From: Candidatus Zixiibacteriota bacterium
Lineage (GTDB): Bacteria; Zixibacteria; MSB-5A5; GN15; FEB-12
Reading direction: 5' to 3'
Assembly: GCA_024280215.1 (NCBI GenBank)
Contig: JAJRQO010000022.1
Location: forward strand, 6,910-70,909
Length of the DNA stretch: 64,000 nucleotides
Below, piece by piece: positions 5,604 through 31,451 of this stretch. The translations under genes were made by a program, and so were the position numbers. The notes under the pieces were generated by a model. The model did not search any database. It saw nothing but the letters and a program-made list of their open reading frames with translations, and had not been told where the DNA came from. Position 1 is the stretch's first letter, and each line of letters begins with the position of its first letter.

Positions 5604-6462
5604 CTTGAATAGTTCCGTGTCCTATCTTAAATTTTTCTTTTAGCATGGAATTTAATGCTCTTGTTAGTGCAGGAGCGTCAGGTAGATCAGACTCGCCTAC
5701 ACAAATATGGCAAGAGAGGGCAATTTCTTTTGATGAGAGAGACCAGATATGTAAATCGTGCACATCAATAATTTTTTCAAATACCATCATTTCTGTGTGA
5801 ACTTTATCAAAGTCAATTCCTGCAGGTACCGCTTCCAAAAAGACAAGGGTTGCTTCTTTTATAACAGAATAAGATGACCAAAGAATCATAAGAGCAATAA
5901 CAAACGACAAAAAGACATCAATGATATATAAGTCTGTCATTATTATAACAATACCGCCGATGATGACCGCTACCGATGAAAGAGCATCGTATGCCATGTG
6001 TAAAAATGCGGTTTTCATGTTAAGCGATTTCCCTTTTTCAGAATGCAGCAATAATATAGAGACAATATTCCCGATTAAACCAATTACAGAAACAGTCAGA
6101 AACATAACTGGATACTTCAACTCTTGGGGATTGTAAAATCTATCATAAGCCTCAGCCATAATAAAAATAGAGATAACTACCAATGAGACTGCCGAAATAA
6201 AAGCAGTCATTACTTCAATACGTAAATACCCATATGTCGATTTTTTTGTCGCAGGGAGTTCAGAACCTTTGGCACCAAGCCATGCTAAAATAAGAGCAGC
6301 GACATCGGAAAGATTATGGATTGCATCTGAAATGAGAGCTAAATATCCTGAGAGAATACCACCGATAAACTCAGCGATAGTGATTATTAAGTTGAAGATA
6401 ATAGTCCAGAAAAGTTTTTTTCCTGAAACTTGCTGATGGTCGTGTGAGTGTGCCATTGTCAA
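5530..6462 (-). CDS. Cation diffusion facilitator (CDF) family divalent-metal efflux transporter
   Basis: 310 aa. His-rich N- and C-termini, six predicted TM segments, and the CDF signature SDAIHNLSDV / LHMAYDALSS. Confidence 0.85.
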   Translation of the reverse strand: MTMAHSHDHQQVSGKKLFWTIIFNLIITIAEFIGGILSGYLALISDAIHNLSDVAALILAWLGAKGSELPATKKSTYGYLRIEVMTAFISAVSLVVISIFIMAEAYDRFYNPQELKYPVMFLTVSVIGLIGNIVSILLLHSEKGKSLNMKTAFLHMAYDALSSVAVIIGGIVIIMTDLYIIDVFLSFVIALMILWSSYSVIKEATLVFLEAVPAGIDFDKVHTEMMVFEKIIDVHDLHIWSLSSKEIALSCHICVGESDLPDAPALTRALNSMLKEKFKIGHGTIQVETHECDNSELLCTHTHNDKHHSH

Positions 6463-6495
6463 TAATATACGAAATCTAAGTATTGAAAGAAATAA

Positions 6496-6978
6496 CTATT
6501 TTAGCTCTTTTATAAGCAGATTGATTGCTTGCATGTGGTAAGTTTCGTGGTAACCAATTGCTAAAACAGCATCATGAAATGAGTTGAGGGTCATTCCAAA
6601 TGAAACATGGGCGGGTTCATCGTATTGTTTGTCAGCATAGAAGTGTAAGTCTTTTTCTAAGACAGTTATTGATTCTTTTAGTTCAGTTAAAAGTCTTTCA
6701 AATGTAGGAGTTTCAGAATCAAAATTGGCGGGGGAGGAACCTTTGGCAAAATATCCCAAATATTTCTCATCAATGATTGGCATAACGATATTTGAGCGAC
6801 GGTATATAAGAGAAATTTGGGTCGTTAGAATATGACCTGCTTGCCAGAGCAAATTATTAGAAAATTTATCAGGAATCAGAAGCGATTGTTCTTGGCTAAT
6901 ACTTTCAAGAAGAGAAATGTTTTTGTAACGTATGAAAACAAGATTTGAGAAGGCATGTTCGCGAAGTTCTTTTTCCAT
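6496..6978 (-). CDS. DinB-family (DinB_2-like) four-helix-bundle protein
   Basis: 160 aa. Spaced His residues (GHILTT ... HETYHMQ) resemble the DinB metal triad. Confidence 0.55.
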   Translation of the reverse strand: MEKELREHAFSNLVFIRYKNISLLESISQEQSLLIPDKFSNNLLWQAGHILTTQISLIYRRSNIVMPIIDEKYLGYFAKGSSPANFDSETPTFERLLTELKESITVLEKDLHFYADKQYDEPAHVSFGMTLNSFHDAVLAIGYHETYHMQAINLLIKELK

Positions 6979-6980
6979 AA

Positions 6981-7646
6981 TTATCCTTTGATAAGTTTAA
7001 GAGCAAAAAATCCTAAGAATAAAAGCAAAACGAATGCGACTGCTAAGAGATTGAAATATTTGTCAATGAATTCCTGTATTTTATTTCCATACTTTTTGTA
7101 CATCATACCGATAGTTCCAGCTACAGCAAAAAATCGAAGCGGTCTGCTAATAGCTGATGCGACGACAAAAGGAATAAAACTCATTTTGAAAAATCCAGCA
7201 GCGATAGTGAATACTTTATAAGGTATAGGAGTGAAGCCTGCAATACCAACAGCCCACGGACCGACTTGCATGCCAAACATTTCTTTTTCATTAAACCAAT
7301 GATTGGCAACGGTCAGAAGTTCTTCGGGAGTTGTGCCAGAGATTGATGCGGTCATTGACATCATCGTCTCGCCAATCAATTCAAAGGCGTACATGCCTAT
7401 GAAGTAGCCAACGATACCACCAATAACAGAGCCAGCCGAACAGATAAGAGCAAAACGAACCCACTTTTTGTGGTCACCCATACAGAGTGCGATAAGAAGT
7501 GTGTCGGGGGGAATTGGGAAAAATGACGCTTCCGCAAGTGAGAGGAAAAAGAGTGCTGCTTGGGAGTTTTTGGAATGGCTCCATTTGAGAACCCAATCGT
7601 AAAGTGAACGCATCCATCTGAGAGGAGCCAGCAATATATGTAGCAC
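6981..7646 (-). CDS. YqaA/DedA-like (SNARE-associated) membrane protein
   Basis: 221 aa. Motif LAEASFFPIPPDTLL and multiple TM segments. Only 2 nt from the next gene. Confidence 0.7.
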   Translation of the reverse strand: MLHILLAPLRWMRSLYDWVLKWSHSKNSQAALFFLSLAEASFFPIPPDTLLIALCMGDHKKWVRFALICSAGSVIGGIVGYFIGMYAFELIGETMMSMTASISGTTPEELLTVANHWFNEKEMFGMQVGPWAVGIAGFTPIPYKVFTIAAGFFKMSFIPFVVASAISRPLRFFAVAGTIGMMYKKYGNKIQEFIDKYFNLLAVAFVLLLFLGFFALKLIKG

Positions 7647-8981
7647 TTAATCTTCCTTACCGTTTTCTTTGTCGATTGGTTTGTTCTTTAAGAGTTCGAT
7701 TTTTAATCGGGTTAATCTGTTATCTTCTTCTTCTAAGACAACAATTTTAACGTCATTAATGATGACCTCGTAATCTTTTTTAGGTATCGCTCCTACATAG
7801 TCTAAGACTAACCCTGCTATTGTCTCGGCTCTGTCTTCAGGAAGTTTCGAGTTGAGCATTTCATTGATAGCTCCAACCCATACTGACCCTTCTGCGTAGA
7901 CAACATTTTCAGAATGTTTGACCAATGGTTCACGTTCCACGTCGTATTCATCCTGAATTTCACCAACGAGCTCTTCTAATATATCTTCAAGAGTTATAAT
8001 GCCAGCTGTACCACCAAATTCATCTAAGACAATAGCAATGTGTTGTTTCTTCTTTTGGAAAATATTTAAAAGCTTTGAGAGTGGCATAGAGTCAGGGACA
8101 AAAAGAGGGTCTCTCAGTAAGTTTGATAATATGATGAGTTCAGGATTGACTTTGTGTAGAATAATATCTTTGGTGTATAGAACCCCGACAATTTTATCAA
8201 TATTGTCTTCATAAAGAGGATAGCGACTATAACCATTTTGACTAATAGTTTCAAAAATTGATTTTTGTTCAGCATTGATTTCAATTGCCTCAACATCTAT
8301 ACGTGGCGTCATCGCTCGCCTGACAGTCGAATCAGCAAAATCAAAAACTGATTTGATTAATCGTTCTTCGGTTTCATCAAAAACACCTTTTTGTTTCCCA
8401 TCAAAAATCATCTGATTGATTTCATCTTCTGAGACAACAGTTTGTCCATTCGATGTTGAGATACCAAACAGTTTGAGTATGAGAGTTGCTGATTTACTTA
8501 GGGCATTTGAGAAAAAGGATGTGAGTTTAATAAATAGTGTTATAGGTCGTGCAACAAATTGAGCGTAGCGTTCAGGGTTTGAAAGGGCAATATATTTGGG
8601 GACTAACTCCCCAATAACAACAGATACGATTGTAATCAAAATTGCAACGATAGCAACTGAAAAAGTACCTGATGAATTTGAAACATATTCAATAGGAATT
8701 TTAAGTATAATTGCTTCAATAGATTTTACTAATGTTGCTCCACCAAAGACACCTGCTAAGGTTGCAAAGAGGGTGATGCCTACTTGTACGGTTGCTAAGA
8801 ATTTTTCGGGGGTGTTGTGTAGGTCTAAGGCTGCTTTGGCAGATTTAGAACCATCTTCAAGTTTTGAAACAAGTTTACTTTTGCGACTGGCAATTATTGA
8901 GAATTCCGATAGAGCGAAATAGCCATTTGCAATAATTAAACATAAAATTGCAAGGATTTCATAGGTAAGAGTACTCTCCAT
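7647..8981 (-). CDS. CNNM/DUF21-CBS-CorC_HlyC family transporter-associated protein (hemolysin C-like)
   Basis: 444 aa. N-terminal 4-TM DUF21 domain, a CBS pair (VRRAMTPRIDV...), and a CorC/HlyC C-terminal domain. Confidence 0.85.
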   Translation of the reverse strand: MESTLTYEILAILCLIIANGYFALSEFSIIASRKSKLVSKLEDGSKSAKAALDLHNTPEKFLATVQVGITLFATLAGVFGGATLVKSIEAIILKIPIEYVSNSSGTFSVAIVAILITIVSVVIGELVPKYIALSNPERYAQFVARPITLFIKLTSFFSNALSKSATLILKLFGISTSNGQTVVSEDEINQMIFDGKQKGVFDETEERLIKSVFDFADSTVRRAMTPRIDVEAIEINAEQKSIFETISQNGYSRYPLYEDNIDKIVGVLYTKDIILHKVNPELIILSNLLRDPLFVPDSMPLSKLLNIFQKKKQHIAIVLDEFGGTAGIITLEDILEELVGEIQDEYDVEREPLVKHSENVVYAEGSVWVGAINEMLNSKLPEDRAETIAGLVLDYVGAIPKKDYEVIINDVKIVVLEEEDNRLTRLKIELLKNKPIDKENGKED

Positions 8982-18957: not shown

Positions 18958-20445
18958 CTACTTGTTTTGAATTTTTTCTAAAGCTTTTTTCCTGATGTAA
19001 GAATAGTTTCTATTTGAAACAAGATTGGCATTTGCGGCTTTTTGAAAATAGGATTGAGCTTTTTCGTTATCACCAATTTTTTCATATGCCAAAGCCATTC
19101 GATAAATATTAAACGGGTTGTTCTGATTTGATCTTCTGAAATAATCAATAGCTGATTGATACTTACCCTCTTGATAAGCAAGCATAGCATAAAGTTGGTT
19201 TCCTAAACGAACTAAATTTGGATTGTTTTGGCTTGTAGCATATTCGAAAAATTCATCTATCTTATTGTGAGCATTTGTCGATTTATTTTTTATTATATCA
19301 AGAATGGCAAAATTAATTAAGTTGTTCTTAGAAGCATTGTATTGAATCTGAGAGGAAAGGGATGAGTTTTCTATCAGTTCTTGTGAACTTAAAAAACTTT
19401 TTTCAGCATCATTGACCTTATCCATGGCAATATAAAGAAAACCAAGGTTGATAAGTTCATTTACGATTCTAATTGTATCAGCAGAATTTATTGAGAGTTG
19501 TTTCATCTTACCAGTTACCTTGAGTGCTGCTGCTAAGTTTCCTTCATCAATATATGAGACGATGATTCCTTCATAGGCGATTCTTTTTGTAATGTCATTC
19601 GTTGCTGATTTTAAAAGTTTTTGTAATTGGTTGCGTGCTTGTACATGTTCGTTTTTATAATTTAAATTAGAGGCGATTCCTAAATATGAAAAAGTGAAAT
19701 ATGGATTCACCTGCAATGCCTTTTCATAGTTTGCGATAGATTTATCAAACTTGCCCATTTTCAATAATAATTCGCCGTAGGAGTCATAAGGGTTGGGGTC
19801 ATTTGGAATCAGCTTAATATACTTTTCAAACATTTTTTCAGCTTCATTGTAGTTTTGTAAAAAACGATACGCATAACCCAATTGATTATAGACAGGTGAG
19901 TATTTAGGGTTTATTTCAAGAGCTTTTAAATAATACTTAATAGACTTTTCATACTCCTGTGATACAAAATATGTTGTAGCCATAAAATTAAGTACTCGTT
20001 CATCATTTGGATACAGCAATAACAGCTCTTCTAAAAATGAGCGTGTCGCATCGTTTTGATTATTTATTTGAGCTTCAGCAGCAGAAATCCAAATCTGTTC
20101 CCCTTTGGAAACATACTTTTTTAAACTTGTCGCTTTTGCGATATTTGTAAAAAAGTCATTTGGGTTTTGATTGGCAAAAGCAAGACCGATATACGCCATA
20201 GCAAAATTGGAATCAAGAGTGATTGCTTCTTGGAAGTATGTTACTGCTTCAAGTCCTCGAAGTCTGTCAGATAATGAAAGTCCTTTGAGGTAGAGTTTTT
20301 TTGCTTCTTCAGAATTAGTGGTAATGGGGATTTTCTCCAGTTGTGTAGAACAAGAAACAAAAAATATATTTACGATGAAAATAGCAATCAGGAGATATGA
20401 AATTTTATTTCGATAATTCATAAAAACCTCAATGTATGAGTACAC
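18958..20445 (-). CDS. TPR-repeat lipoprotein
   Basis: Signal sequence plus lipobox-like FFVSC. Many 34-aa TPR-like units (..A..Y..AL.I.P.....Y..LG..Y). The probable true start is Met9 (20421). Confidence 0.75.
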   Translation of the reverse strand: MYSYIEVFMNYRNKISYLLIAIFIVNIFFVSCSTQLEKIPITTNSEEAKKLYLKGLSLSDRLRGLEAVTYFQEAITLDSNFAMAYIGLAFANQNPNDFFTNIAKATSLKKYVSKGEQIWISAAEAQINNQNDATRSFLEELLLLYPNDERVLNFMATTYFVSQEYEKSIKYYLKALEINPKYSPVYNQLGYAYRFLQNYNEAEKMFEKYIKLIPNDPNPYDSYGELLLKMGKFDKSIANYEKALQVNPYFTFSYLGIASNLNYKNEHVQARNQLQKLLKSATNDITKRIAYEGIIVSYIDEGNLAAALKVTGKMKQLSINSADTIRIVNELINLGFLYIAMDKVNDAEKSFLSSQELIENSSLSSQIQYNASKNNLINFAILDIIKNKSTNAHNKIDEFFEYATSQNNPNLVRLGNQLYAMLAYQEGKYQSAIDYFRRSNQNNPFNIYRMALAYEKIGDNEKAQSYFQKAANANLVSNRNYSYIRKKALEKIQNK

Positions 20446-20529
20446 TTTATTTTGTCTAACATATATCTGATTAATAGATTATCAAATATAAAAGAACATA
20501 TAATTCTACGATTATTAAAGTAGAGAGTT

Positions 20530-21411
20530 TCAGTTCTTTTTGAGCAATGTTTTGGGAGTTGGAAGTCCCGAAATAATGAGTGCAACAAATATCAGCAATC
20601 CACCAATTGCTCGGTGGGTGATAACTTCTTCGCCGCCTAATGTCCATGCAAAAAGAGCTGCAAAAACAGGTTCTAAAGCAAATATCAGAGAGACCCTTAA
20701 TGGTGTGCGAATCTTTTGAGCAAACATCTGAATCAAAAATGCTGTTAAGGTTGGAAATATAGCTAAAAAGAGAGTTGCCTTCCAAGCATAACTTGTTGAA
20801 ATCTCAAGTGACAGGTCAGCCATTAAGGCATAGGCTAAGCTGATGCTTCCAACTATTAAAAATTGTTGGCAACTGATGACAATCGGATCTAACCCTTGTT
20901 TCATGTATTTGTCAGAGTATAACACATGGAGAGCGTAGGTAACTGCTGCAATAAGGGTGAGTATGTCGCCAAAATTTATATCATTCATTCCTCCCGTGAG
21001 AGTCCAAAGACCAAAAAGTGAAATCACAGAAGCAAGGATTTCCATCTTGTTTGGGTTGATTTTAAAAATGGTCAGCAAAAACAATGGTATAAATGCAACA
21101 AAAAGACCAGTAATAAATCCTGAATTTGATGCAGTCGTATATTGTAATCCGATTGTTTGAGAGACATACAGCAGTGTCAGAATAACAGAAAGAAAAAGAG
21201 CTATTTTAATATCTTTAAAAACAGACTTTTTTTTGAATACCAAATAACCAAGTAAGAGTAGCCCCGCAATTAAAAAACGATAGGCAACCAGCACAATTGG
21301 GTCAATTCCATCAAGAGCATTTTTAACAATAAAAAATGTAGAACCCCAAATTGCTGCCGCGTAAAATAGTCCTGAGTCAGCAAGAATAGCTTTTGATTTG
21401 GTTACTTTCAT
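20530..21411 (-). CDS. EamA/DMT-superfamily transporter
   Basis: 293 aa. Ten predicted TM helices arranged as two EamA-like halves. Confidence 0.85.
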   Translation of the reverse strand: MKVTKSKAILADSGLFYAAAIWGSTFFIVKNALDGIDPIVLVAYRFLIAGLLLLGYLVFKKKSVFKDIKIALFLSVILTLLYVSQTIGLQYTTASNSGFITGLFVAFIPLFLLTIFKINPNKMEILASVISLFGLWTLTGGMNDINFGDILTLIAAVTYALHVLYSDKYMKQGLDPIVISCQQFLIVGSISLAYALMADLSLEISTSYAWKATLFLAIFPTLTAFLIQMFAQKIRTPLRVSLIFALEPVFAALFAWTLGGEEVITHRAIGGLLIFVALIISGLPTPKTLLKKN

Positions 21412-21506
21412 TTTGTTATGGTATTATTTTTAGATAAAATGTCAATAGGAATAAAAAAAGACAGGTTCTGTTTTAGAGACCCGTCTTATAAAATATGGCA
21501 ATTTTA

Positions 21507-22781
21507 TTATACTGTGGCAGACATGCAGAAGTTTTTTAATGATTCTACATTGGAGCTTAAATTAAGCTGCTCCAAATAATCCATATCAACGGCTGACTTG
21601 CTATCTTCTCTGACATTATGTACAATGTCATGATTAAGAGCGTATCCTAAATGAACCGCTGTGAGTACGTTGGTTATTGGTCTTTGTGCTTTTTGTGGTG
21701 TGTAATGCAAAGCGATAGCTTCCAAAATCGAATTTGGTAACCCCCATAAAGATAAAAGATGAGCACCAATTTCGGCATCATTGACTCCAATAATCTGTTT
21801 TTCAGCTTCAAACAATGGGATTTCTTCTCGTTCTGATAATTCAACCGATTGTTTGAATTCAGTTGGAAAGTATGAAAGCATCACCAATTTGCCAATGTCG
21901 TGAAGCATACCAGCCATCAAGGCATCTTCAGTATGTTTTGTCATCAGACCAAATGCGTTGGCAAGATGTCGTGATGAGGTGCCTACTGCTAATGAGTTAT
22001 TATAAATTGATTCAATTGAATAGCCTGAAATCCCAGGGTCTTTAAATAGGTTAAAAACTCCAGCTGTTAAAACCATGCTTTGGATTGTATCGATACCTAA
22101 TAAATTTACTGCATGCAATGGGTTCTCAACATGAGCGGAAAGACCAAAAAATGCGGAATTAACCATGTGTAGAACTTTTGCGGTGATTGAGACATCTTTT
22201 TTTATAATATTCGCAATATTACGTATAGATGGATATTGGCATTGAAGTTCTGTTGTAAGTTGGTTATATATTTCAGGTGGACTCGGAAGATTTGTAATGC
22301 CTGATAATCTTTTATGTAAATCTTTATTTGCTAAGACTCCTTTGAGTCCAAAAGCATTCTCGACAATACTTATAAATTGACTCGGTTTAGTTTCGTTATT
22401 CATGAATTGATGGATATATCCTGCTGATTTGTAGACGATATCTTTATCACTATTTTCAGAATACAAAAATCTAATAATATCTTGATGGTTTTCAGCTATA
22501 AATCTATGCAGGTCAATTCCAGTTCCATCAAGCAAATCCATTGATGAGATTACTAAGTCAACTTGTTTTGAGCTAATAATTGATTTTGCTTTTTCTATTG
22601 AATCTGCTTGAAGGCTGACATAGTCAGCTGAACAGAGTCGATAGTAATCATTGATTTGCTCATTACAATTGACATGGTCGAATACGAACAATATTTTCTC
22701 AGTTGCCATCTTTTTTGTTGTTTCCTTCATGTAGCTATAACCTATAGATTTTACACTGTTATTAGTTGTCCATTTCCCCAA
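21507..22781 (-). CDS. Receiver-like domain + HDOD domain signalling protein
   Basis: N-terminal CheY-like pattern (KILFVFD ... VDLVISSMDLLDGTG). C-terminal HDOD/HD-like region (AGMLHDIGKLVM). The start may instead be an internal Met (22730 or 22709). Confidence 0.75.
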   Translation of the reverse strand: MGKWTTNNSVKSIGYSYMKETTKKMATEKILFVFDHVNCNEQINDYYRLCSADYVSLQADSIEKAKSIISSKQVDLVISSMDLLDGTGIDLHRFIAENHQDIIRFLYSENSDKDIVYKSAGYIHQFMNNETKPSQFISIVENAFGLKGVLANKDLHKRLSGITNLPSPPEIYNQLTTELQCQYPSIRNIANIIKKDVSITAKVLHMVNSAFFGLSAHVENPLHAVNLLGIDTIQSMVLTAGVFNLFKDPGISGYSIESIYNNSLAVGTSSRHLANAFGLMTKHTEDALMAGMLHDIGKLVMLSYFPTEFKQSVELSEREEIPLFEAEKQIIGVNDAEIGAHLLSLWGLPNSILEAIALHYTPQKAQRPITNVLTAVHLGYALNHDIVHNVREDSKSAVDMDYLEQLNLSSNVESLKNFCMSATV

Positions 22782-23072
22782 AGAGAGCAGTTAATATCGT
22801 GCGATTTACTATGTTTTTGTGTTCAGTAAATAATATCGGAATGAGAGAAAATATATTTAGGGCTAAAAAAGTGGAATATATGATACAAGCGTTTGAAGTG
22901 GATAAATAAGATGAATTATCTTCGTAAGTTATTGTTCGCCAATCTATAAGGTGAAAGTAGGCAGTGCATACAATCTTTGAAAGAGCTACATACAAAGGTC
23001 CGAATCAAATGGCAATTTTAAAGTTTTTCTGGAATTACTATTCTGTTAAGACTGACAATTAGGGATATATTT

Positions 23073-24260
23073 TTAATATCCCGATGGAAATGTCTTATCT
23101 TTTTTAAGGCGTTTGATCCATGAGCTGTATCCTTGTTCTTTTACAAATTCTACAACTCTTCTGAAACCCTCACCATAGTCGAGGTCTGGATCTTTAAAGA
23201 GTCTCTCAATGAGAAAAAAAGCATAGTCATCAGGGTATTGCTGCAAAATTAGATAGGCGACATAGTTGCAGCTCCCCTCACAAAAAGGAGCTTCAACATC
23301 TTTAGGACTATGAAGCCCTTGCCAGACATGATTAAACTCATGGGCAATGATTTTAATCATTGATAGTTTTGGTACGCCATTTAGTAAATATATATTTATA
23401 TCTCGCTTGAGTGTAACACCGAAAACATTTTTTTCCTGATAGAAAATGGTAAAGCCTTGTGGATTTGAAATTGTGTAGTTCACTAATTCATCTAATTCAG
23501 TTTTATTTACTAAATGAACTGATACTTTATTGAGAGGAATATCAAGTTGGTATGACTGCAACATTTCATTTACTTCAATAAGTAGTGGTTTGACCTCAGA
23601 GATTTCTGAAATTGCGTCTTCAGCACAGGTAAGACAAATACCTCGTCCATCAATATAGCTAAGTCCTTTTTTTTGGGTAGTGTTGTTGAAATAACCTCCG
23701 CAGTATTCGCATTTTTTGCTGTCCTGTATATGAGACTCATGATAATTATTTTTATATCTATCATATATGTAATCCTCGCTGATTACTTCAGAGCAGAGTG
23801 AACAGCGTAAAGCGACTTTGTTGGTATAGCAGGAATCATGATAGTTTTTATTTTCAAAAGTTATATAACTATCGGTAATATTTGTATTGCAATATGCACA
23901 TGGGAAAAATGAGACAATATCATAGCATTCTTTATGATAACTTTTTTCGTTATAGGTTGTGTATCTGCCGTTTACCTCTTTGTTACAATAGGCACAGTAA
24001 ATTAGGTGAATGATTTGGTAACAACTGTCGTCATAAAATTTTTCGTTTTCAAAATAATAAGTAGAACCTTTGATTCTCGATTGGCACCGTTCACAAATGA
24101 AATGTTTATTGTGAAAATAATAGCCGTTGGCTGATATAGGAGCTTTAATGATTTTTTCAGAACAATAGTGACAGATTTTCTTTTCTGCTGATTGGATTGT
24201 AACAGAGCAGAGGAGAATTAGAAAAAGAGAGTAAAGAATGTAAGCAGATTTTTTGTTCAT
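23073..24260 (-). CDS. Secreted protein with tandem LIM-like zinc fingers and a C-terminal DA1-like HExxH metallopeptidase domain
   Basis: Signal peptide. Five C-x2-C-x16-19-[HC]-x2-[CH] units. Then IAHEFNHVWQG...CEGSCNYVAYL, resembling the DA1-like peptidase core (HEmmHaW...EEGiCqv). Confidence 0.65.
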   Translation of the reverse strand: MNKKSAYILYSLFLILLCSVTIQSAEKKICHYCSEKIIKAPISANGYYFHNKHFICERCQSRIKGSTYYFENEKFYDDSCYQIIHLIYCAYCNKEVNGRYTTYNEKSYHKECYDIVSFFPCAYCNTNITDSYITFENKNYHDSCYTNKVALRCSLCSEVISEDYIYDRYKNNYHESHIQDSKKCEYCGGYFNNTTQKKGLSYIDGRGICLTCAEDAISEISEVKPLLIEVNEMLQSYQLDIPLNKVSVHLVNKTELDELVNYTISNPQGFTIFYQEKNVFGVTLKRDINIYLLNGVPKLSMIKIIAHEFNHVWQGLHSPKDVEAPFCEGSCNYVAYLILQQYPDDYAFFLIERLFKDPDLDYGEGFRRVVEFVKEQGYSSWIKRLKKDKTFPSGY

Positions 24261-24291
24261 ATCTAATTATACAAAATTAAAAGTAATTCTC

Positions 24292-24699
24292 TTATAAAGA
24301 ATTAAGCCAATTTATGAGTCGTGATTTTATTTCATCACGGACTCTTCTGAATTCATCTAATATCTTATCGTCGGTACCAGAAGCATCGGCGGGGTCATCA
24401 AATGGGATATGGACTTTTGCCGTGTTACCTGAAATCATCGGGCAGTTTTCATCGGCGTTGGAGCAGACGGTGATAATATAATCAAACGTGATTTGTTTAT
24501 ATTCATCAATATGGTTTGAAGTATTATTAGAAATATCATAGCCAATTTCAGCCATAACTTTTATGGCATACTTGTTTACTTGTTGAGGTTTTAGTCCTGC
24601 GGAGAATATTTTACCTTGAGAGCCAATCTCTTTTTGTAAGATTGCTTCTGCCATTTGCGAACGACATGAGTTCCCTGTACAAAGAATTAAAACATTCAT
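24292..24699 (-). CDS. arsC: Arsenate reductase, LMW-PTPase (thioredoxin-coupled) type
   Basis: 135 aa. P-loop CTGNSCRSQMAE, plus downstream Cys residues (CSNADENCP) as in the thioredoxin-coupled ArsC family. Confidence 0.85.
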   Translation of the reverse strand: MNVLILCTGNSCRSQMAEAILQKEIGSQGKIFSAGLKPQQVNKYAIKVMAEIGYDISNNTSNHIDEYKQITFDYIITVCSNADENCPMISGNTAKVHIPFDDPADASGTDDKILDEFRRVRDEIKSRLINWLNSL

Positions 24700-24703
24700 C
24701 TCG

Positions 24704-25774
24704 CTATCTTTCTTTTTGAAACCAATGGGTTGTCTTCAGGCAGAACTTCACTAAAAACAACATAAGTGGTACTTCGATAAAAAGTCCAACAACTGTTGCA
24801 ACAGCAGCTCCAGAATTTAATCCAAATAATATAATTGCAGTTGCAATAGCAACTTCAAAATGATTGGATGCACCAATCATTGCCGAGGGGGCAGCATCGG
24901 CATACGAAAGCTTCAATAACTTTGCTCCAAGATATCCAAGAGCAAAGATAAAGAGCGTCTGCACGATAAGAGGAACCGCAATCAATCCAATGTCAATCGG
25001 TTGATTGATTAGTACCTCACCTTTTAAAGTAAAGAGAACTACTAATGTTGTCAGTAGAGCAATAATAGAAACAGGTGTTAATCTATTCAGGAAGACTTTG
25101 TTGAAATAATCTTTACCTTTTTGTTTAATCAGTTTTATTCGTGTAAAATATCCACTTAATAATGGGAGGGCGACATAGACGAGAACTGAAAGGACGATAG
25201 TCTCCCAAGGGATAGGCATTTTATTAGTTGATAATAGAAAGGAACCCAAAGGTGCATATAAAAAGAGCATGACCAATGAGTTGACAGCAACCATGACAAG
25301 GGTTAAGGCATCATTCCCTTTTGCGAGATAGCCCCACATGAGAACCATTGCCGTACAAGGAGCAATGCCGAGCAATATTGCTCCTGAAATATAGGAACGG
25401 TAGAGTTCAACTTCGACACCATTGATTAGTTCTGTCCCGTGAATGAAATCCTTAAAGAGAACCCCCAAAAAAAGATAAGCGAAGAGATACATGCTGAATG
25501 GTTTAATTACCCAGTTGAGAACCAAAGTGAGAATTACAGGTTTTGGGGATTGTAAGGCCGATTTCATTCTACTAAAATCAATTTTGACCATGATTGGAAA
25601 CATCATAAAAAAGAGACAGAGAGCGATTGGAATCGAGACCTCGGCAATTGAATATCTGTTCAACTCAATTGAGATTGTTGGGAAGAAATAACCAATTGTT
25701 GTGCCAATTATAATAGCTAAAAATACCCAACCAGTCAGGTACTTCTCAAAAAGTGATAATTGTTTTGCTGACAT
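24704..25774 (-). CDS. acr3: Arsenite efflux transporter, ACR3 family
   Basis: 356 aa, about 10 TM segments. ACR3-type motifs (GIAPCTAMV, ASNHFEVAIA). Sits between arsR and arsC. Confidence 0.9.
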   Translation of the reverse strand: MSAKQLSLFEKYLTGWVFLAIIIGTTIGYFFPTISIELNRYSIAEVSIPIALCLFFMMFPIMVKIDFSRMKSALQSPKPVILTLVLNWVIKPFSMYLFAYLFLGVLFKDFIHGTELINGVEVELYRSYISGAILLGIAPCTAMVLMWGYLAKGNDALTLVMVAVNSLVMLFLYAPLGSFLLSTNKMPIPWETIVLSVLVYVALPLLSGYFTRIKLIKQKGKDYFNKVFLNRLTPVSIIALLTTLVVLFTLKGEVLINQPIDIGLIAVPLIVQTLFIFALGYLGAKLLKLSYADAAPSAMIGASNHFEVAIATAIILFGLNSGAAVATVVGLFIEVPLMLFLVKFCLKTTHWFQKER

Positions 25775-25803
25775 TATGTATTAATTTCTTTCAAAAAGAA
25801 GAT

Positions 25804-26148
25804 TTATTTACAGTTATTTGTAAGAAAATGAATAGAGAGTTTATCTCTATCTGATTGATAGGGTTGTCGATCTTTAATTTGAAGTAACATAGTATCAAAT
25901 GAGGGGAGGTAGTTGTTGATATCGCCGTTCAAGCGATAATGTACCCATTTACCATCTCGACGGTCAATGACCATTTTGGCTGATTTGAGCTTTGCCATAT
26001 GACGAGAAACCGAGGATTGGGGTAAATCAAGTACTTTCATTACATCGCAGACACAGAGTTCTCTTTCTGTCAATAAAATGACAATTCGGAGCCTGATTTC
26101 TTCAGAAATCGCTTTAAAAAGTTCAAATTCTTGAATTTGAATATTCAT
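25804..26148 (-). CDS. arsR: ArsR/SmtB family metalloregulator
   Basis: 114 aa. As(III)-site motif ELCVCDV and a winged-HTH (QSSVSRHMAKLKSAKMV). Confidence 0.85.
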   Translation of the reverse strand: MNIQIQEFELFKAISEEIRLRIVILLTERELCVCDVMKVLDLPQSSVSRHMAKLKSAKMVIDRRDGKWVHYRLNGDINNYLPSFDTMLLQIKDRQPYQSDRDKLSIHFLTNNCK

Positions 26149-26170
26149 ATATCCGAATATATGGATATAT
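26147..26170. promoter_or_regulatory. Perfect 8-bp inverted repeat (ATATATCC-N8-GGATATAT) overlapping the arsR start codon; candidate operator
   Basis: Read directly: 26147-26154 is the reverse complement of 26163-26170. It lies in the arsR / HMA-gene divergent intergenic region. Confidence 0.3.
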
Positions 26171-26339
26171 ATAAAATATGCAACAGTTTTCTTGTGAAAA
26201 TAGAGGAAAAAAGTAGATATTATCTTGATTATTCTCGAAATATTTGGAACTTGAAGCAGTTTAGGTTTGTTTAAGAGAATATCTACTAAAACAGTCTTCT
26301 TATATGAAAGTGATTGAGAGATAAAATAAAAAACTATTA

Positions 26340-26367
26340 TTGACCAATAGCATAGATTTAGTATATT
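26340..26367 (+). promoter_or_regulatory. Candidate sigma-70-type promoter for the HMA gene (TTGACC-16-TATATT)
   Basis: Hexamers at 26340-26345 and 26362-26367, about 45 nt upstream of the TTG start. An AAGGAG RBS lies at 26399-26404. Confidence 0.3.
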
Positions 26368-26410
26368 ATATGATTATAAACAAACCGAAAACATATTTAA
26401 GGAGTTCATC

Positions 26411-27112
26411 TTGAAAAAAGTATTATCATTAACGATTATGGCATTAGCATTGATTGCTTTTGCTGGTTCAACTGCCACAGCATGCGGCACTTGTTCTGCT
26501 CACGCTGACAAAACAGCTACAAAGACATCTGCCAAGTCTTCTTGTTCATCAAAAACAGGTGCTGACAAAGCATCCTGTTCGTCAAAAACAAATGCCACAA
26601 AAGTTTCTGGTGACAAAGCATCCTGTTCAGCAAGCACAAATGCAATTAAAGCATCTGCATCTTCTGCAGCATGTTCACAAGCCGACATGGAAGCTTGTGC
26701 CAAAAAAATGGGTGTTTCTGTTGAAGAATGCAAAAAAATGTGTTCTGAAAATGGCTCAATGACAATGCAAAAAATTTCTATTGAAGGAATGACTTGTACA
26801 AGTTGTGAAGCTTCTTTGACAAAAGCTATTGAAGGTGTTGCTGGAGTTCAAAAAGTTGTTTCTATTAGTCACAAAGATGGTTCTGCTGTTGTTTGTGTTG
26901 ATAAGAACAATACTTGTTTGACAACATTGACAAAATCAATAACTGACAAAGGTTTTAAAGCAGAAATTATTCCTGCAGTAGCTACTACTGGTGCTACTAC
27001 AATTGCTGCTCCTGGAGCTGATAAAAGTGCATGTGCTAAATCTTGTTCATCTGCTGAAAAAGCAGCCTGTGCTTCTAAAGATGCACCAAAAGATGCTAAA
27101 GATACAAAATAA
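26411..27112 (+). CDS. Secreted Cys-repeat protein with a heavy-metal-associated (HMA) domain
   Basis: Signal peptide. Three degenerate SC-S-x-(K/S)-T repeats: KSSCSSKT, KASCSSKT, KASCSAST. HMA core GMTCTSCEASLTKAIEGVAGV. Cys-rich C-terminus (CAKSCSSAEKAACAS). TTG start with a strong RBS. Confidence 0.7.
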   Translation: MKKVLSLTIMALALIAFAGSTATACGTCSAHADKTATKTSAKSSCSSKTGADKASCSSKTNATKVSGDKASCSASTNAIKASASSAACSQADMEACAKKMGVSVEECKKMCSENGSMTMQKISIEGMTCTSCEASLTKAIEGVAGVQKVVSISHKDGSAVVCVDKNNTCLTTLTKSITDKGFKAEIIPAVATTGATTIAAPGADKSACAKSCSSAEKAACASKDAPKDAKDTK

Positions 27113-27137
27113 CTTAGCTTTCTTACTAAATTTGAAA

Positions 27138-27161
27138 AGCCCGCTACAGCGGGCTTTTTTT
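27138..27161 (+). terminator. Rho-independent terminator
   Basis: agcccgc-taca-gcgggct followed by a T7 run, 26 nt after the HMA gene stop. Confidence 0.8.
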
Positions 27162-27207
27162 ATAAAAAATAATTCAATGCTTTACATTTTGGACAAAATA
27201 AAACTTA

Positions 27208-28182
27208 TTGAAAATTATGCGTATATTCAAACAGATAATAATTCTCAGTCTCTTGCTTATGACCTTTCAAACTGCAAAATCGGCAAAATTTGCTGGTGAA
27301 GCATTTTCAATTGGTGTAGGTGGACGTTCACTTGCCTTAGGTGGTGCAACTATCGCCTCAGGTTTTGATGGAACCGCTGGCTATTGGAACCCATCTGGGA
27401 TGGTGTCGCTTTCTGGAAGAACCGTGACAGCGATGCATGCGGAAACATTTGGCTCACTTTTGAATCATGATTATGTCGCATATATTGATGCTCGTCCAAA
27501 AGAGAACTCGCTTATTCAAGCGTTTGGTTTTTACTTTTATTATTTAGGTGGTGGCGGGATTAAAATAACTCAGCTCAACGAGTTTAATCGACCTGAAATT
27601 TTGAGAGAAGAGTCGCATGGTGATTATTTGCTTGCTGCTTCACTTGCTGGATCGTTGCATGAGAAAATTGATTTTGGACTTACCGCAAAAATTATTTACC
27701 GTGACATTGGCACTGAAACTGGTAAAGGACTTTCAATGGATGCTGGGATTGTCTATCGCTATCATAAACGACTGCATTTTGGACTGATGGTGACAGATAT
27801 CACCACAGGCTTCATACGCTACTCTGGAGAGACTTTTGATTCTGGAGCAAACTCAGAATCTATTTATCCGACGGTCAAGCCAGGGTTGATGCTGAAACAT
27901 TCATTGACAAATTTTACAGGTTCATTTTTTATGAGTTCAGATATTAAATTTGAAAATATAAAATACGCCGCTCAGTATTGGAGCGGACCGATTTCTGTTG
28001 ATACTCATTTTGGGTTAGAACTTGGATACAAAGATGTTCTCTTTGGACGGACTGGCTTTGATATAGGACGGTTTACTGCGGGAGCAGGGTTTAACTTTTC
28101 AAATATCACGATAGATTTCGCATTTTTACAACATGATGACTTAGACGAAACCTATCGTATCTCTGGTGGCTATACTTTTTAG
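27208..28182 (+). CDS. PorV/PorQ-like outer-membrane beta-barrel protein
   Basis: Signal peptide. N-terminal motif GVGGRSLALGGATIASGFDGTAGYWNPSGM as in the PorV/PorQ family. Alternating beta-strand pattern with a C-terminal aromatic residue (GGYTF). The likely start is the ATG at 27217. Confidence 0.55.
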   Translation: MKIMRIFKQIIILSLLLMTFQTAKSAKFAGEAFSIGVGGRSLALGGATIASGFDGTAGYWNPSGMVSLSGRTVTAMHAETFGSLLNHDYVAYIDARPKENSLIQAFGFYFYYLGGGGIKITQLNEFNRPEILREESHGDYLLAASLAGSLHEKIDFGLTAKIIYRDIGTETGKGLSMDAGIVYRYHKRLHFGLMVTDITTGFIRYSGETFDSGANSESIYPTVKPGLMLKHSLTNFTGSFFMSSDIKFENIKYAAQYWSGPISVDTHFGLELGYKDVLFGRTGFDIGRFTAGAGFNFSNITIDFAFLQHDDLDETYRISGGYTF

Positions 28183-28199
28183 CCTTTTAAAGGCTCCTC

Positions 28200-28826
28200 T
28201 TATAAACTGTCATTTTGTGCTGATTTAATTAAATTCGCACCTGCACTATGTTTGATATTCACAACAAACATCCCTCGTAAATCCCCAGCGTTATAATCAA
28301 TTGCTTTATCATCAGGGTATTTTTCTTTGACAGCGATAGCTGCTTTTTTGTCGATGCTCTTTGCATCACCGTGACATTTCAGACAAAGTTTACCAATATA
28401 AATTGGTTTATAAAAGTAGTAATCTTTTTTATTTTCTGAGTCTTTCCATTCATCAAAATATTCTAATTTTTTTAGAGAATCAGCAAAAAGAGACAAAATC
28501 TCAAGTTCATGAACATCGGCAAGATTATCTTGATTTCTTGGTTTGTCGGTTACTCGTTTTATTGAGTATGCTTCACCTAAAAACTTGTCGGTAATTTCAG
28601 GGGCTTTCACTTGGCAGACATTGATAGCATTTTCAAAGCCACCTGCTTTGACACCTTTCATCAGTTCCGATTTGAGGTTTGCCATGAAATTTTTGATAAG
28701 CAACGAAGATGAACTTCGCATGAGTTTTTGTTCGGCGTCTTGTGTTAGTTTTGAAGAATGCTCTTTTTCAGCGGTAGAACATCCAAGTAAAAACAGAGTG
28801 AGGGTAATTATGATAATTTTGTTCAT
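28200..28826 (-). CDS. DUF3365 (Tll0287-like) lipoprotein with a CxxCH motif
   Basis: Lipobox LLGCS. The CLKCHGD motif and the C-terminal GDLRGMFVV are typical of the DUF3365 family. Confidence 0.65.
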   Translation of the reverse strand: MNKIIIITLTLFLLGCSTAEKEHSSKLTQDAEQKLMRSSSSLLIKNFMANLKSELMKGVKAGGFENAINVCQVKAPEITDKFLGEAYSIKRVTDKPRNQDNLADVHELEILSLFADSLKKLEYFDEWKDSENKKDYYFYKPIYIGKLCLKCHGDAKSIDKKAAIAVKEKYPDDKAIDYNAGDLRGMFVVNIKHSAGANLIKSAQNDSL

Positions 28827-28838
28827 TCTATACTCCTT

Positions 28839-31451
28839 TTAAAATTTAAATCCAATATGTAGATATACATTTTCTAAATCTTGATTGACGATGCCATATC
28901 CAAAAGTGAACGGTCCAATAGGAGAATCTAAAGAAAGTGATGCTCCTACAGCGTTTCTGAGATTACGTAGTTTAATTTGGTCGGTGCTGTTATACACTTC
29001 TCCAAGGTCGTAGCGAGCGGTGAAATAGATATTGAGTGGTAGGTTTAACCGTATTTCATTGGAGAAGATAAACATTTTATCACCTGACAATTGGTCTTTG
29101 CGGAACCCCGTAAATGAATTCAGTCCACCCAGATAGAACTGTTCCGATATCGGTAATCCCGAGCGTGATGCTCCCAAGGCAAGATGTGGATGGTAGGTAA
29201 AAGACTTGCTAATTGGAATGTAAGTTTCGTGAGATGTATAAAATTTAGTATACTCAATATCACCACCAACAAATTTCCCCACAAACTCTAAACGAAAAAT
29301 ATGTTTATTGCCCGAGCGTGTGAATGGTAACTGGTCAAAATTTTCAAACAGTGATTCAAATTTTAATTTTCGTAAGCCAAATGTTGTCGTGGTAGAAGTC
29401 TCAGAATCGAACACATCACGTTCTTTTATCGAAAGAGTAGCAGAGACTGTTCCGAGTCGTTCAATTTGTTGTCCGATACCTATTTGAAATCCAGTTGTTT
29501 TTTCGTCATGGTATCCAAGAGGACGATCTTCAAAATTGTATAATTGTCGGAGATATCGAGTATGGAAAATTTTAAACTGTGATGTCAGATAAGTTTTGAA
29601 AATCCTATCAGCTTTAAATGAGAAATAAAAGTTTTGACGGTTTGGTGCATAGCGAGCATGCAGTTTGTATTCAAGTCCTATGCCAGCAAAATTATCATTG
29701 AGCAACTCGATAAATTCTTCCGAATCAAACTCATCATCCCAGTGCCAACCGAACCTTAATCTTTTGCTATGTTTTTCCTTGACCCTGATACGCACTACTA
29801 CGCCATCATCAGAGGGGAGTGCATCAACAGTAACTCTTTCAAACAAATCGGTGCCATAAATATTACGAATTCCCTCAGATGCTAATTCAGTTGAATACGA
29901 TTCATTTTTTTTTAGAGGGAAATATGAACGGACGAACCAATCCTTAGTTGTTGTATTGTCTAAGATATTAATTGATTTTATTATCGCTTCGTCAATCTGA
30001 ACCATTAGAGTTGCATCGGACGAATCGATTGAGACAGATTCGATATTAACTAAATCATAATCGTGGGTCTGATACAATTCAAGGATTTTTTCTAATCCAT
30101 TCTGAATGATTTTAGGAGTTATAGGGGTGTTTTCTATCGTGAATAAATTTGCTAATTCCAAATCTCTGAAAATAGTGTTACCCGAAAATTGAAGTTTGAA
30201 TTTTTTAGCTTGAAAATTTTTGAATCCATCTATACTAATAGCTTTTAAAGCTACTTGTGATGAGTCAGAATTCATGTCATGTAAAGTTGCCGTTAATTTG
30301 AAAAAATTATTTTTGAGCGAAAACTGTTTGAGAATTTTTGTCAGTTTTTCAAGTGTCAATTTTTTATGAAATAATAATTTTTGGATTTTATTCAATTCAG
30401 ACGTTGTCAATGATTTCGAATCGATATTATAAATTTCACAAAAAGAAATTGATTGTGCTTCAGCAAGCATTGCAATGATTTTATCAGCAGCTTTGATTCC
30501 CTCGTAGTATCCGATAGCAATCAGGGTATCTTTTTTTTCAAATTGAGCATTGTGATAGTCATCAATTGGTGGACAAATCACATAGTCTGCTTTTTCAAGC
30601 TGTTCTTGAAGTTTGTCAGCCATCATAATTGAAGTGACCTGATTGGCTATATCTATTGGAGTTATAATCTCGTCTTTTTTAGCAAGTTTACTTGATGTAT
30701 TGATAGCAACAACAAACTGAGATTTCGTGGTGAGTGTTCTTGCTAAATCTACAGGAATCGGGTTAACCATTCCGCCATCCATAAGAATCCTCCCATCGAT
30801 TTCAATCCCAGTAAATGCAAGCGGGAATGCCATCGTTGCTCGCATTGCTTCGGCAATCGACCCATTTTGTAATATTACTTGTTCGCCACTTACAATATCA
30901 GTGCTAACAGTTAGAAATGGAATAGGTAATTTCGAAAAATCGGCATCACACTTGTATAATGCTTTTGTTGTTTGGCGTGTTAAGAGTGAAGTTAATTTTT
31001 GACCTGATGTTAAGGCTTTTGGTAAGACAGGTTTGAATTTATCAAATCGAATTGAGAGCAGATGTTGTTCATTTTCTTCCCGTTTAGTTAAAAACATAGA
31101 ATTGCGAGGAGGAGAATTTGCAAATAGAGTATTGAAATTTAACTCATTGGCAAATTCTTCGATTTCAAGAGGAGTGTAGCCAGAGGCATACAGCCCGCCA
31201 ATAATTCCACCCATTGATGTACCTGCGATACCGACGACTTCGATGTTTTTTTCTTCAAACGCTTTTAGAACACCAATTATGGTCATTCCTCTTGCCCCAC
31301 CACCAGATAAAGCGAGTAGAACTCGGAATTTATTTTCCTGCACATGTGGGTTTTGTCCGTCGAGACCACCAATAACGATTGTTTCATCGGCTAATATTGA
31401 CTGTGACGAAAAGATTATAATTAAATATAGAAAAAAGCTGATAATTTTCAC
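28839..31451 (-). CDS. Patatin-like phospholipase fused to POTRA + Omp85-type beta-barrel (PlpD-like, type Vd architecture)
   Basis: Signal peptide. Patatin motifs GGGARG, GTSMGG (GxSxG) and MDGG (catalytic Asp). The C-terminal ~300 aa are beta-barrel-like and end in HIGFKF. Confidence 0.85.
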   Translation of the reverse strand: MKIISFFLYLIIIFSSQSILADETIVIGGLDGQNPHVQENKFRVLLALSGGGARGMTIIGVLKAFEEKNIEVVGIAGTSMGGIIGGLYASGYTPLEIEEFANELNFNTLFANSPPRNSMFLTKREENEQHLLSIRFDKFKPVLPKALTSGQKLTSLLTRQTTKALYKCDADFSKLPIPFLTVSTDIVSGEQVILQNGSIAEAMRATMAFPLAFTGIEIDGRILMDGGMVNPIPVDLARTLTTKSQFVVAINTSSKLAKKDEIITPIDIANQVTSIMMADKLQEQLEKADYVICPPIDDYHNAQFEKKDTLIAIGYYEGIKAADKIIAMLAEAQSISFCEIYNIDSKSLTTSELNKIQKLLFHKKLTLEKLTKILKQFSLKNNFFKLTATLHDMNSDSSQVALKAISIDGFKNFQAKKFKLQFSGNTIFRDLELANLFTIENTPITPKIIQNGLEKILELYQTHDYDLVNIESVSIDSSDATLMVQIDEAIIKSINILDNTTTKDWFVRSYFPLKKNESYSTELASEGIRNIYGTDLFERVTVDALPSDDGVVVRIRVKEKHSKRLRFGWHWDDEFDSEEFIELLNDNFAGIGLEYKLHARYAPNRQNFYFSFKADRIFKTYLTSQFKIFHTRYLRQLYNFEDRPLGYHDEKTTGFQIGIGQQIERLGTVSATLSIKERDVFDSETSTTTTFGLRKLKFESLFENFDQLPFTRSGNKHIFRLEFVGKFVGGDIEYTKFYTSHETYIPISKSFTYHPHLALGASRSGLPISEQFYLGGLNSFTGFRKDQLSGDKMFIFSNEIRLNLPLNIYFTARYDLGEVYNSTDQIKLRNLRNAVGASLSLDSPIGPFTFGYGIVNQDLENVYLHIGFKF

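Follow-up and report, generated by a model that had tools for sequence, protein, structure and literature searches.

A predicted Sec-exported member of the bacterial LIM/DA1-like metallopeptidase family encoded behind an ars operon in a Candidatus Zixiibacteriota genome

The size of organs and seeds in plants is controlled by DA1 peptidases, whose core, in which a LIM-like unit is joined to a peptidase domain, is thought to be bacterial in origin. Here we describe a gene encoding a protein of this kind in a stretch of 64,000 nucleotides (nt) from a Candidatus Zixiibacteriota bacterium (contig JAJRQO010000022.1, positions 6,910 to 70,909; called here the window), where it lies on the minus strand directly behind an arsR-acr3-arsC operon. 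As summarised by Dong et al. 2017 (PMC5322733), bacterial proteins combining LIM or LIM-like units with a DA1 peptidase domain were described computationally by Burroughs, Iyer and Aravind in 2011. In the same account (PMC5322733), the LIM-like plus peptidase unit is placed as ancient in bacteria, a LIM-like region with four CxxC/H pairs is common to plant DA1 and to Roseiflexus proteins, and this LIM-like unit is required for the peptidase activity of DA1 (C274Y). Relatives of the protein studied here already bear the NCBI names 'protein DA1' or 'LIM domain-containing protein'. The first-pass annotation of the window, made from the letters alone, had described LIM as a domain regarded as essentially eukaryotic; its combination with a DA1-like peptidase in a bacterium is no surprise given the bacterial cases reported in 2011 and the names already assigned to the relatives. 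The protein adds little conceptually, because the family, the domain fusion and the bacterial distribution are already on record.

The open reading frame (ORF) starts with ATG and encodes a product of 395 amino acids (aa); the identical protein (P0001) was recovered when this product was used in a homologue search. The ORF, its start, its motifs and its location behind the ars operon are all present as first annotated, and the coordinates of the features are collected in Table 1. A signal-peptide-like segment at the N-terminus is followed by six four-ligand zinc-knuckle units and by a C-terminal HExxH...E peptidase domain. The protein, so far unannotated, belongs to the exported branch of a family already known, the bacterial LIM/DA1-like peptidases; a scan of the 395-aa protein against NCBIfam matched nothing meaningful. 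We read it, with a probability of about 0.78, as a Sec-exported (periplasmic or envelope-associated) zinc metallopeptidase of this family, whose position next to the ars genes was inherited within one group of lineages.

To define the zinc-binding region, the cysteine and histidine pairs were read directly from the translation, yielding six units with four ligands each: ZnA (C30/C33/H50/H53), ZnB (C56/C59/D77/C80), ZnC (C89/C92/H109/C112), ZnD (C121/C124/H141/C144), ZnE (C153/C156/H174/H177) and ZnF (C184/C187/C209/C212). Four of the six sites contain at least three cysteines. Five units and an isolated CERC had been counted initially; the count is six, CERC being the opening pair of ZnB, whose third ligand is D77. 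The Pfam LIM profile (PF00412) matched the protein with E=3e-16 (59.8 bits against a cutoff of 22.9), which bears out the proposed LIM assignment. When residues 30-82 were scanned alone, 38.9 bits were obtained over positions 1-55 of the 58 positions of the profile. The sequence was also compared with the LIM pattern C-x2-C-x16-23-H-x2-C/H-x2-C-x2-C-x16-21-C-x2-C/H/D, in which two fingers are joined by a 2-residue spacer. Residues 30-80 show this eight-ligand, two-finger arrangement, with F54 and I55 as the spacer and an Asp as the seventh ligand; the remaining units are separated by spacers of 8, 8, 8 and 6 residues. Residues 89-112 and 121-144 are half-LIM fingers, because each matches the first half of the LIM profile only, and in the unit-by-unit scan residues 153-212 gave a full-length LIM match of 18.3 bits, which is under the Pfam cutoff. 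The spacing of LIM double fingers, attributed at first to the whole array, is therefore canonical in residues 30-80, but not in the two half-LIM fingers nor in the divergent LIM-like pair of residues 153-212. A profile of the family also matched LIM domains of PINCH and paxillin among the PDB sequences, with E of about 1e-14.

Conservation was counted over 163 aligned relatives, and Pfam profiles were re-scanned over 24 aligned homologues. The ligand columns hold essentially C, H or D only, with 1-4 outliers, and ligands are swapped at position 53 (H/C), position 77 (H/D/C), position 141 (H/C/D) and position 174 (H/C). Such swapping among the relatives fits metal sites, not disulfides. ZnD, ZnE and ZnF are universal: the ZnD ligands are kept in 158-163 of the relatives and the four ZnF cysteines are invariant (163/163). 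The number of fingers varies, ZnB being aligned in about 111 and ZnC in 42 of the 163 sequences; ZnC is present in all seven ars-linked lineages described below and missing from P0008-P0010. The conservation of ligand and catalytic columns over these relatives confirmed, at the level of the alignment, that the zinc-unit pattern is not due to chance.

In the C-terminal part, the catalytic motifs read IAHEFNHVWQG and then CEGSCNY, with E328 placed 17 residues after H311. The first-pass annotation had likened IAHEFNHVWQG and CEGSCNYVAYL to the core of the DA1 peptidases, and this likeness is borne out by the Pfam DA1-like profile (PF12315), which matched residues 282-340 with E=1.8e-8 (34.5 bits against a cutoff of 25) over positions 73-132 of 213; the isolated peptidase domain scored 36.9 bits against the same profile. 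All 24 homologues that were re-scanned matched DA1-like (best E=2.3e-17) and 23 of them matched LIM. H307, E308, H311 and E328 are kept in 161-162 of the 163 relatives (E328 in 161), and besides these ligands W313, G329 (162/163) and a YGxGFR motif (Y362, G363, G365, R367) are near-invariant. Because the four catalytic residues are so widely kept, the peptidase is probably active.

The AlphaFold model of the full-length protein had a mean predicted local distance difference test score (pLDDT) of 88.9 and a predicted template modelling score (pTM) of 0.67. A Foldseek search of this model against the PDB returned PINCH, TES, LMO2/4, Isl1 and Lhx3 with probability 1.0; the match to LIM4-5 of PINCH1 reached E=4e-8, and single LIM domains were superposed on the predicted model with template modelling scores of 0.7-0.77 and root mean square deviations of 1.6-2.3 Å. 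The model thus resembles solved LIM domains, and a structure in which the Cys/His pairs form no zinc knuckles, the alternative envisaged in the first-pass annotation, is not what was obtained. The peptidase domain modelled alone gave a pLDDT of 95.3 and a pTM of 0.91; in this model, a small subdomain of beta-sheet is followed by a long helix that bears HExxH and by another that bears E328, and the C-terminal part is helical. No significant solved relative of this isolated domain was found by Foldseek in the PDB; its best matches, IrrE/PprI (E=0.06), TTHA0227 and thimet oligopeptidase, are all zincins and were too weak to be used. This small, confidently modelled bacterial peptidase would be a good first structure target for the DA1 family, because the domain is without a solved structural relative.

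At the active site, a weak sequence alignment (E=0.03, about 50 residues) was found with the HExxHxW...xEG core of the M1 aminopeptidases: IAHELAHQW...LNEGFA of IRAP/aminopeptidase N aligns with the HExxHxW...xEG core of the 395-aa protein, and the order beta-sheet, HExxH helix, Glu helix is the same in the M1 enzymes and in our peptidase model. The spacing differs, HExxH-x16-E here versus x18 in the M1 aminopeptidases, and the domain described here, of about 180 aa, is without the M1 accessory domains. In the alignment, HEFNH stands against HELAH and E328 against the Glu ligand of the NEG motif, which supports a putative gluzincin-type ligand set composed of H307, H311 and E328, E308 acting as catalytic base.

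The last residues of the protein (390-395; positions 23073-23090 of the window, minus strand) read F-P-x-G-Y, an ending that is kept among close relatives. P392 is found in 115 of the 163 sequences, and the last residue is Y or F wherever this column is aligned; the cytoplasmic Chloroflexi branch has a different end, RRLPD/G. For a protease, a free C-terminus that is conserved might act as an autoinhibitory plug or direct sorting.

A word-indexed search retrieved 11 homologues, and 26 once the alignment served as query, whereas an exhaustive profile search retrieved 517 clusters at 50% identity (E<=1e-30). A species-level genome scan found a relative encoded in 156 genomes of several phyla, mostly Zixibacteria, Ignavibacteria/Melioribacteraceae, Marinimicrobia, Krumholzibacteria, Calditrichota and Sericytochromatia; Melioribacter roseus, for instance, has a homologue (locus L053). 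A profile built from versions lacking the signal peptide retrieved 617 proteins at E<=1e-10; among the best 120 of these, the named matches were mainly from Chloroflexi (Ktedonobacteria, Anaerolineae, Tengunoibacter tsumagoiensis), many of them bearing the NCBI name 'protein DA1', and plant DA1 was not among these best 120. Two branches can be distinguished, an exported one (Zixibacteria, Ignavibacteria, Marinimicrobia), to which the 395-aa protein belongs, and a cytoplasmic, plant-like 'EEG' one (Chloroflexi). The EEG motif occurs in 110 sequences of the cytoplasmic branch; the exported branch has a variable xEG. The Chloroflexi proteins named 'protein DA1' (from Roseiflexus, Ktedonobacteria, Anaerolineae and Tengunoibacter) belong to the same family, being matched by the family profile at E<1e-77, and have the three C-terminal finger units and the catalytic residues in common with the protein of the window. 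They differ by a direct M-x-x-C-x-x-C start without signal peptide (99 of 114 hits) and by the plant-like EEG motif.

Like Arabidopsis DA1, and the plant DA1/DAR proteins in general, the 395-aa protein has a LIM domain, then a LIM-like unit with four CxxC/H pairs, and then an HExxH...EG peptidase. In the protein of the window, the four pairs are C153-x2-C156, H174-x2-H177, C184-x2-C187 and C209-x2-C212, all near-invariant, and the comparison with DA1 suggests that residues 153-212 may have a regulatory or structural role. The differences are as follows. Ubiquitin-interacting motifs (UIM) and activation by ubiquitylation are features of the plant DA1 subfamily, not of the Pfam DA1-like domain; no UIM family was found among the Pfam hits of the 395-aa protein at E<=0.1, and a signal peptide occupies that position. 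Without UIM motifs and without a ubiquitin system, activation must therefore differ from that of plant DA1. The signal peptide also implies that the protein probably works outside the cytoplasm. Finally, it has two extra half-LIM fingers, and its glutamate ligand lies in CEGSC, versus EEGxCQ in plants and Chloroflexi.

The fingers themselves are alike, in sequence and in fold, to those of the tandem-LIM adaptors PINCH, paxillin and FHL, the sequence match to PINCH1 LIM4-5 reaching E=1.7e-14. The FHL proteins also carry half-LIM fingers alongside full LIM domains. By contrast with these adaptors, which are cytoplasmic or nuclear scaffolds without an enzyme domain, the protein described here is a protease fusion with an export signal, and the spacers between its fingers after the first pair are of 8/8/8/6 residues, versus 2 in the tandem-LIM adaptors.

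The N-terminus, MNKKSAYILYSLFLILLCSVTIQSA followed by EKK, is laid out in n-, h- and c-regions like a Sec signal peptide: an n-region MNKK, a 17-residue h-region SAYILYSLFLILLCSVTI and a c-region QSA preceding E26, with a small residue at -1. Export was called by heuristic reading of this N-terminal layout, and signal-peptide features conserved over the relatives support the signal peptide first proposed. Signal-peptide-like N-termini were found in 130 of the 172 best relatives and a direct M-x-x-CxxC start in 34. Over 122 relatives, the median length of the uncharged N-terminal stretch is 19 aa, and the net charge averages +1.6 in the n-region versus +0.4 over the ten residues that follow the stretch. 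Commonly its last residue is A, G or S, and the first CxxC comes about four residues later. A lipobox-like LxxC is seen in a few relatives (LLGC in P0020, LSSC in P0042), and the N-terminus contains no twin-arginine motif. This layout favours Sec export, with the catalytic part predicted outside the cytoplasm.

Regarding the ars genes, the stop codon of arsC ends at 24292 and the ATG of the peptidase gene is at 24260 on the same strand, so that the 31-nt gap reported at first is exact; no terminator-like hairpin was found in this gap on the minus strand. The arrangement arsR-acr3-arsC-peptidase gene, with a gap of 24-31 nt, is present in all seven lineages whose peptidase is at least 40% identical: the window, P0002 (locus L082), P0003 (L001), P0004 (L081), P0005 (L086), P0006 (L088) and P0007 (L084). 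A gene encoding a protein with an HMA domain, divergent from arsR, is also present in all seven. The ars junction is kept in L084 and L086 despite different downstream genes; in these two loci the peptidase is 40% identical to the 395-aa protein and Acr3 is 75% identical. From the Patatin-POTRA-Omp85 gene through to the peptidase gene, the ars-linked loci form one syntenic block, and the ars adjacency can be explained by inheritance because this whole block is syntenic. Outside this group the next relatives, P0008 (39% identity), P0011 and P0013, are not ars-linked. In a survey of 8 kb around each of 80 genome loci of the family, ars genes were within reach in one locus, L001, that of the closest relative, and in none of the other 79. 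An operon common to the family was rejected, since clustering of the neighbouring genes over these 80 loci gave no conserved partner, the largest neighbour family being present in 9 of 80. The first-pass annotation was thus right to allow that the link to the ars genes may be coincidental: it is kept in one group of seven lineages only.

Alignment of the ars-linked loci revealed a hexamer TATAAT exactly 5 nt upstream of the ATG. A TATAAT-like box (TATAAT, TATACT or TATTAT, at least 5 of 6 matches) is present at the same offset (-11..-6) in all seven ars-linked lineages, whose spacers are otherwise diverged around it. At that offset such a box was found in none of the 51 other ORFs of the window and in 2 of 73 other family loci, both with TATAAC. 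A sigma-70 scan flagged no promoter for the peptidase gene and no -35 match. The -10-like box suggests that the gene may have a promoter to itself, one that overlaps the end of arsC, with transcription starting at or next to the ATG and an mRNA that would be without, or nearly without, a leader. Read-through from the ars promoter is possible because there is no terminator-like hairpin between the genes. An Rfam search of positions 20000-28500 returned only a sub-threshold Yfr8 match inside the coding sequence (E=0.077), which was taken as chance.

Several points weigh against the proposed exported peptidase with an inherited ars position. We found no experimental study of a bacterial member in the literature, and we infer the activity, substrates, zinc content and localisation; the match to the DA1-like profile of Pfam is limited to about 60 of its 213 positions; the ars junction, strictly kept in seven lineages, two of which have other downstream genes, could reflect a functional link; and an oxidising periplasm is an unusual place for Cys-rich zinc fingers. 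The proposed cleavage site is also atypical, with Q at -3 and Lys at +2 and +3, because of which the N-terminal segment could remain a membrane anchor. An uncleaved hydrophobic segment would in that case tie the protease to the inner membrane, where it would face the periplasm or, in reversed orientation, the cytoplasm. The 17-residue h-region lies inside a 21-residue uncharged stretch, as an anchor might, a cytoplasmic branch without signal peptide exists in the family, and the reversed topology would place the fingers in the compartment where zinc fingers normally fold. Burroughs and colleagues are said to have used the wording 'membrane-associated peptidases' in their 2011 abstract. We nevertheless consider such an anchor unlikely, as the uncharged stretch of the relatives, with its median of 19 aa, its A/G/S end and the CxxC close by are arranged as is typical of signal peptides that are cleaved, the distribution of charge speaks for an N-in, C-out orientation, and the lipobox-like LxxC of P0020 and P0042 implies export. 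Recent acquisition of the gene from a eukaryote, which could be envisaged because LIM and DA1 are best known in eukaryotes and no solved structure is closer than those of animal LIM proteins, is almost certainly not the case: the bacterial clusters are numerous and deeply diverged and the family extends over 156 species genomes, the protein has a bacterial signal peptide and no UIM motifs in the Pfam scan, and the LIM-like plus peptidase unit is ancient in bacteria according to the literature. The G+C content of the gene, 0.338, fits its neighbours (0.32-0.40) and the window (0.363), and this native composition together with the depth of the bacterial family argues against a recent horizontal transfer.

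The arsenic context raises a different question, namely whether in the seven-lineage group the peptidase gene belongs functionally to the ars operon as its fourth member, co-transcribed and controlled by ArsR, the thiol-rich fingers binding or sensing periplasmic As(III) either as a sink or as a switch of the peptidase when As(III) displaces zinc. As(III) attacks C3H and C4 zinc fingers. The gene is on the same strand as arsC across a 31-nt gap without a terminator-like hairpin, the junction is maintained in every lineage of the group even where the downstream genes differ (L084, L086), ArsR carries a CVC As(III) motif, a second exported Cys-rich protein, the HMA protein, is encoded divergently from arsR in all syntenic loci, and all seven linked proteins have the optional ZnC. 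All of this must be set against the 79 other loci without an ars gene within 8 kb, the absence of any neighbour family in more than 9 of 80 loci, the unlinked nearest outside relative P0008, the synteny of the whole block, by which inheritance explains the adjacency, and the TATAAT-like box 5 nt before the ATG, which suggests a separate promoter; moreover, the ligand composition of the fingers is the same in ars-linked and unlinked relatives. We therefore regard a fourth ars gene as quite unlikely. More specifically, and very unlikely in our estimation, the LIM peptidase would have been recruited to arsenic handling in this group, its Cys3/Cys4 fingers sensing or capturing periplasmic As(III) and zinc displacement switching the protease; its expression may then occur with or alongside that of arsR-acr3-arsC and of the divergent exported Cys-rich HMA protein. 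If true, this would be an arsenite-responsive extracytoplasmic protease and the first functional role of LIM fingers outside the cytoplasm. The strict ars junction in one group provides a testable arsenite hypothesis.

Returning to the exported zinc metallopeptidase, the mechanism that appears most likely from the domain anatomy and by analogy with plant DA1 would be the following. The protein would act in the periplasm or envelope as an endopeptidase of gluzincin type. The signal peptide would be cleaved after export and the fingers would then bind zinc. The finger array may serve as a peptide/protein-binding arm recruiting substrates or, like the LIM-like unit of plant DA1, may gate the active site. 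The catalytic zinc would be held by H307, H311 and E328, a water molecule would be activated by E308, and envelope or periplasmic proteins would be cleaved. The gene could be transcribed on its own from the -10-like box at its ATG, with possible read-through from the ars promoter. LIM-type Cys/His fingers apparently work here in the periplasm, an unusual setting, because most of the bacterial members found carry export signals.

Table 1. Features of the peptidase gene and of the adjoining ars genes (positions in the window)
Feature	Position	Strand	Basis
LIM/DA1-like peptidase gene, stop codon included	23073..24260	-	ORF; Pfam LIM and DA1-like over cutoffs
Putative Sec-type signal peptide, residues 1-25, predicted cleavage before E26	24186..24260	-	Direct reading; relatives
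Canonical LIM domain, residues 30-83 (ZnA, 2-residue spacer, ZnB)	24012..24173	-	Pfam LIM profile
Half-LIM single finger ZnC, residues 89-112, optional unit	23925..23996	-	LIM profile positions 1-27 only
Half-LIM single finger ZnD, residues 121-144	23829..23900	-	Unit scan; conservation
LIM-like double finger ZnE+ZnF, residues 153-212, directly before the peptidase	23625..23804	-	Weak full-length LIM match
DA1-like zinc metallopeptidase domain, residues 215-395	23076..23618	-	PF12315; AlphaFold model
HEFNH (H307, E308, H311), predicted two zinc ligands and catalytic base	23328..23342	-	Conservation
E328 in CEGSC, predicted third zinc ligand	23277..23279	-	Conservation; M1 alignment
TATAAT hexamer, candidate -10 box	24266..24271	-	Alignment of ars-linked loci
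Spacer between arsC and the peptidase gene, 31 nt	24261..24291	-	No terminator-like hairpin
arsC, low-molecular-weight phosphatase type	24292-24699	-	Pfam LMWPc
acr3	24704-25774	-	Pfam SBF
arsR, ELCVCDV As(III)-binding motif	25804-26148	-	Pfam HTH_5; reading of the translation

Upstream of the ars genes, and divergent from arsR, positions 26411-27112 (plus strand) encode the exported HMA protein (233 aa). Its signal peptide is accompanied by a low-complexity region rich in Cys, Ser and Lys with repeated 'KASCSSKT'-like motifs, an HMA domain of canonical type (GMTCTSC) and a tail rich in Cys. This gene lies opposite arsR in all the syntenic loci (L081, L082, L084, L086) and may share with it an ArsR-controlled intergenic region. 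Within this region, just upstream of the arsR start codon, an AT-rich near-palindrome, atatatatccatatat (26149-26200, minus strand), is a candidate ArsR operator.

Further along, a 324-aa signal-peptide protein is encoded at 27208-28182 (plus strand). It has a sub-threshold match to DUF5723 (21 bits, cutoff 26.8), is well conserved in every syntenic locus (64-96% identity), and may be an outer-membrane beta-barrel, judging from the pattern of its sequence. Positions 28839-31451 (minus strand) encode an 870-aa protein in which a patatin-like phospholipase is fused to POTRA and to an outer-membrane barrel of the Omp85/ShlB type; its gene is conserved as the border of the syntenic block in L081, L084 and L086, beside a Tll0287-like gene (28200-28826).

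On the other side, a gene with response-regulator, HDOD and HD domains (21507-22781, minus strand) directly follows the peptidase gene in the window and in L001, L081 and L082, and in L086 is one gene further from it. The TTG start of this ORF (424 aa) is probably placed too far upstream, because its homologues are of 403-407 aa. An HDOD gene also adjoins the peptidase gene, divergently, in four Ignavibacteria/Melioribacteraceae loci (L064, L072, L077, L079). This adjacency may reflect synteny in two separate instances, or else a functional association that is weak.

A 63-aa ORF, which gave no Pfam match, is found on the strand opposite to the peptidase gene in the lineages of P0006 and P0007; in each of the two contigs it overlaps the 3' end of that gene by 4 nt (L084, 7164-7355, minus strand; L088, 1686-1877, minus strand). 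Finally, beside the unlinked homologue P0013, positions 6101-8575 (minus strand) of L090 encode an 824-aa bacterial ROCO-type protein with LRR, Ras/Roc, COR-A and COR-B domains.

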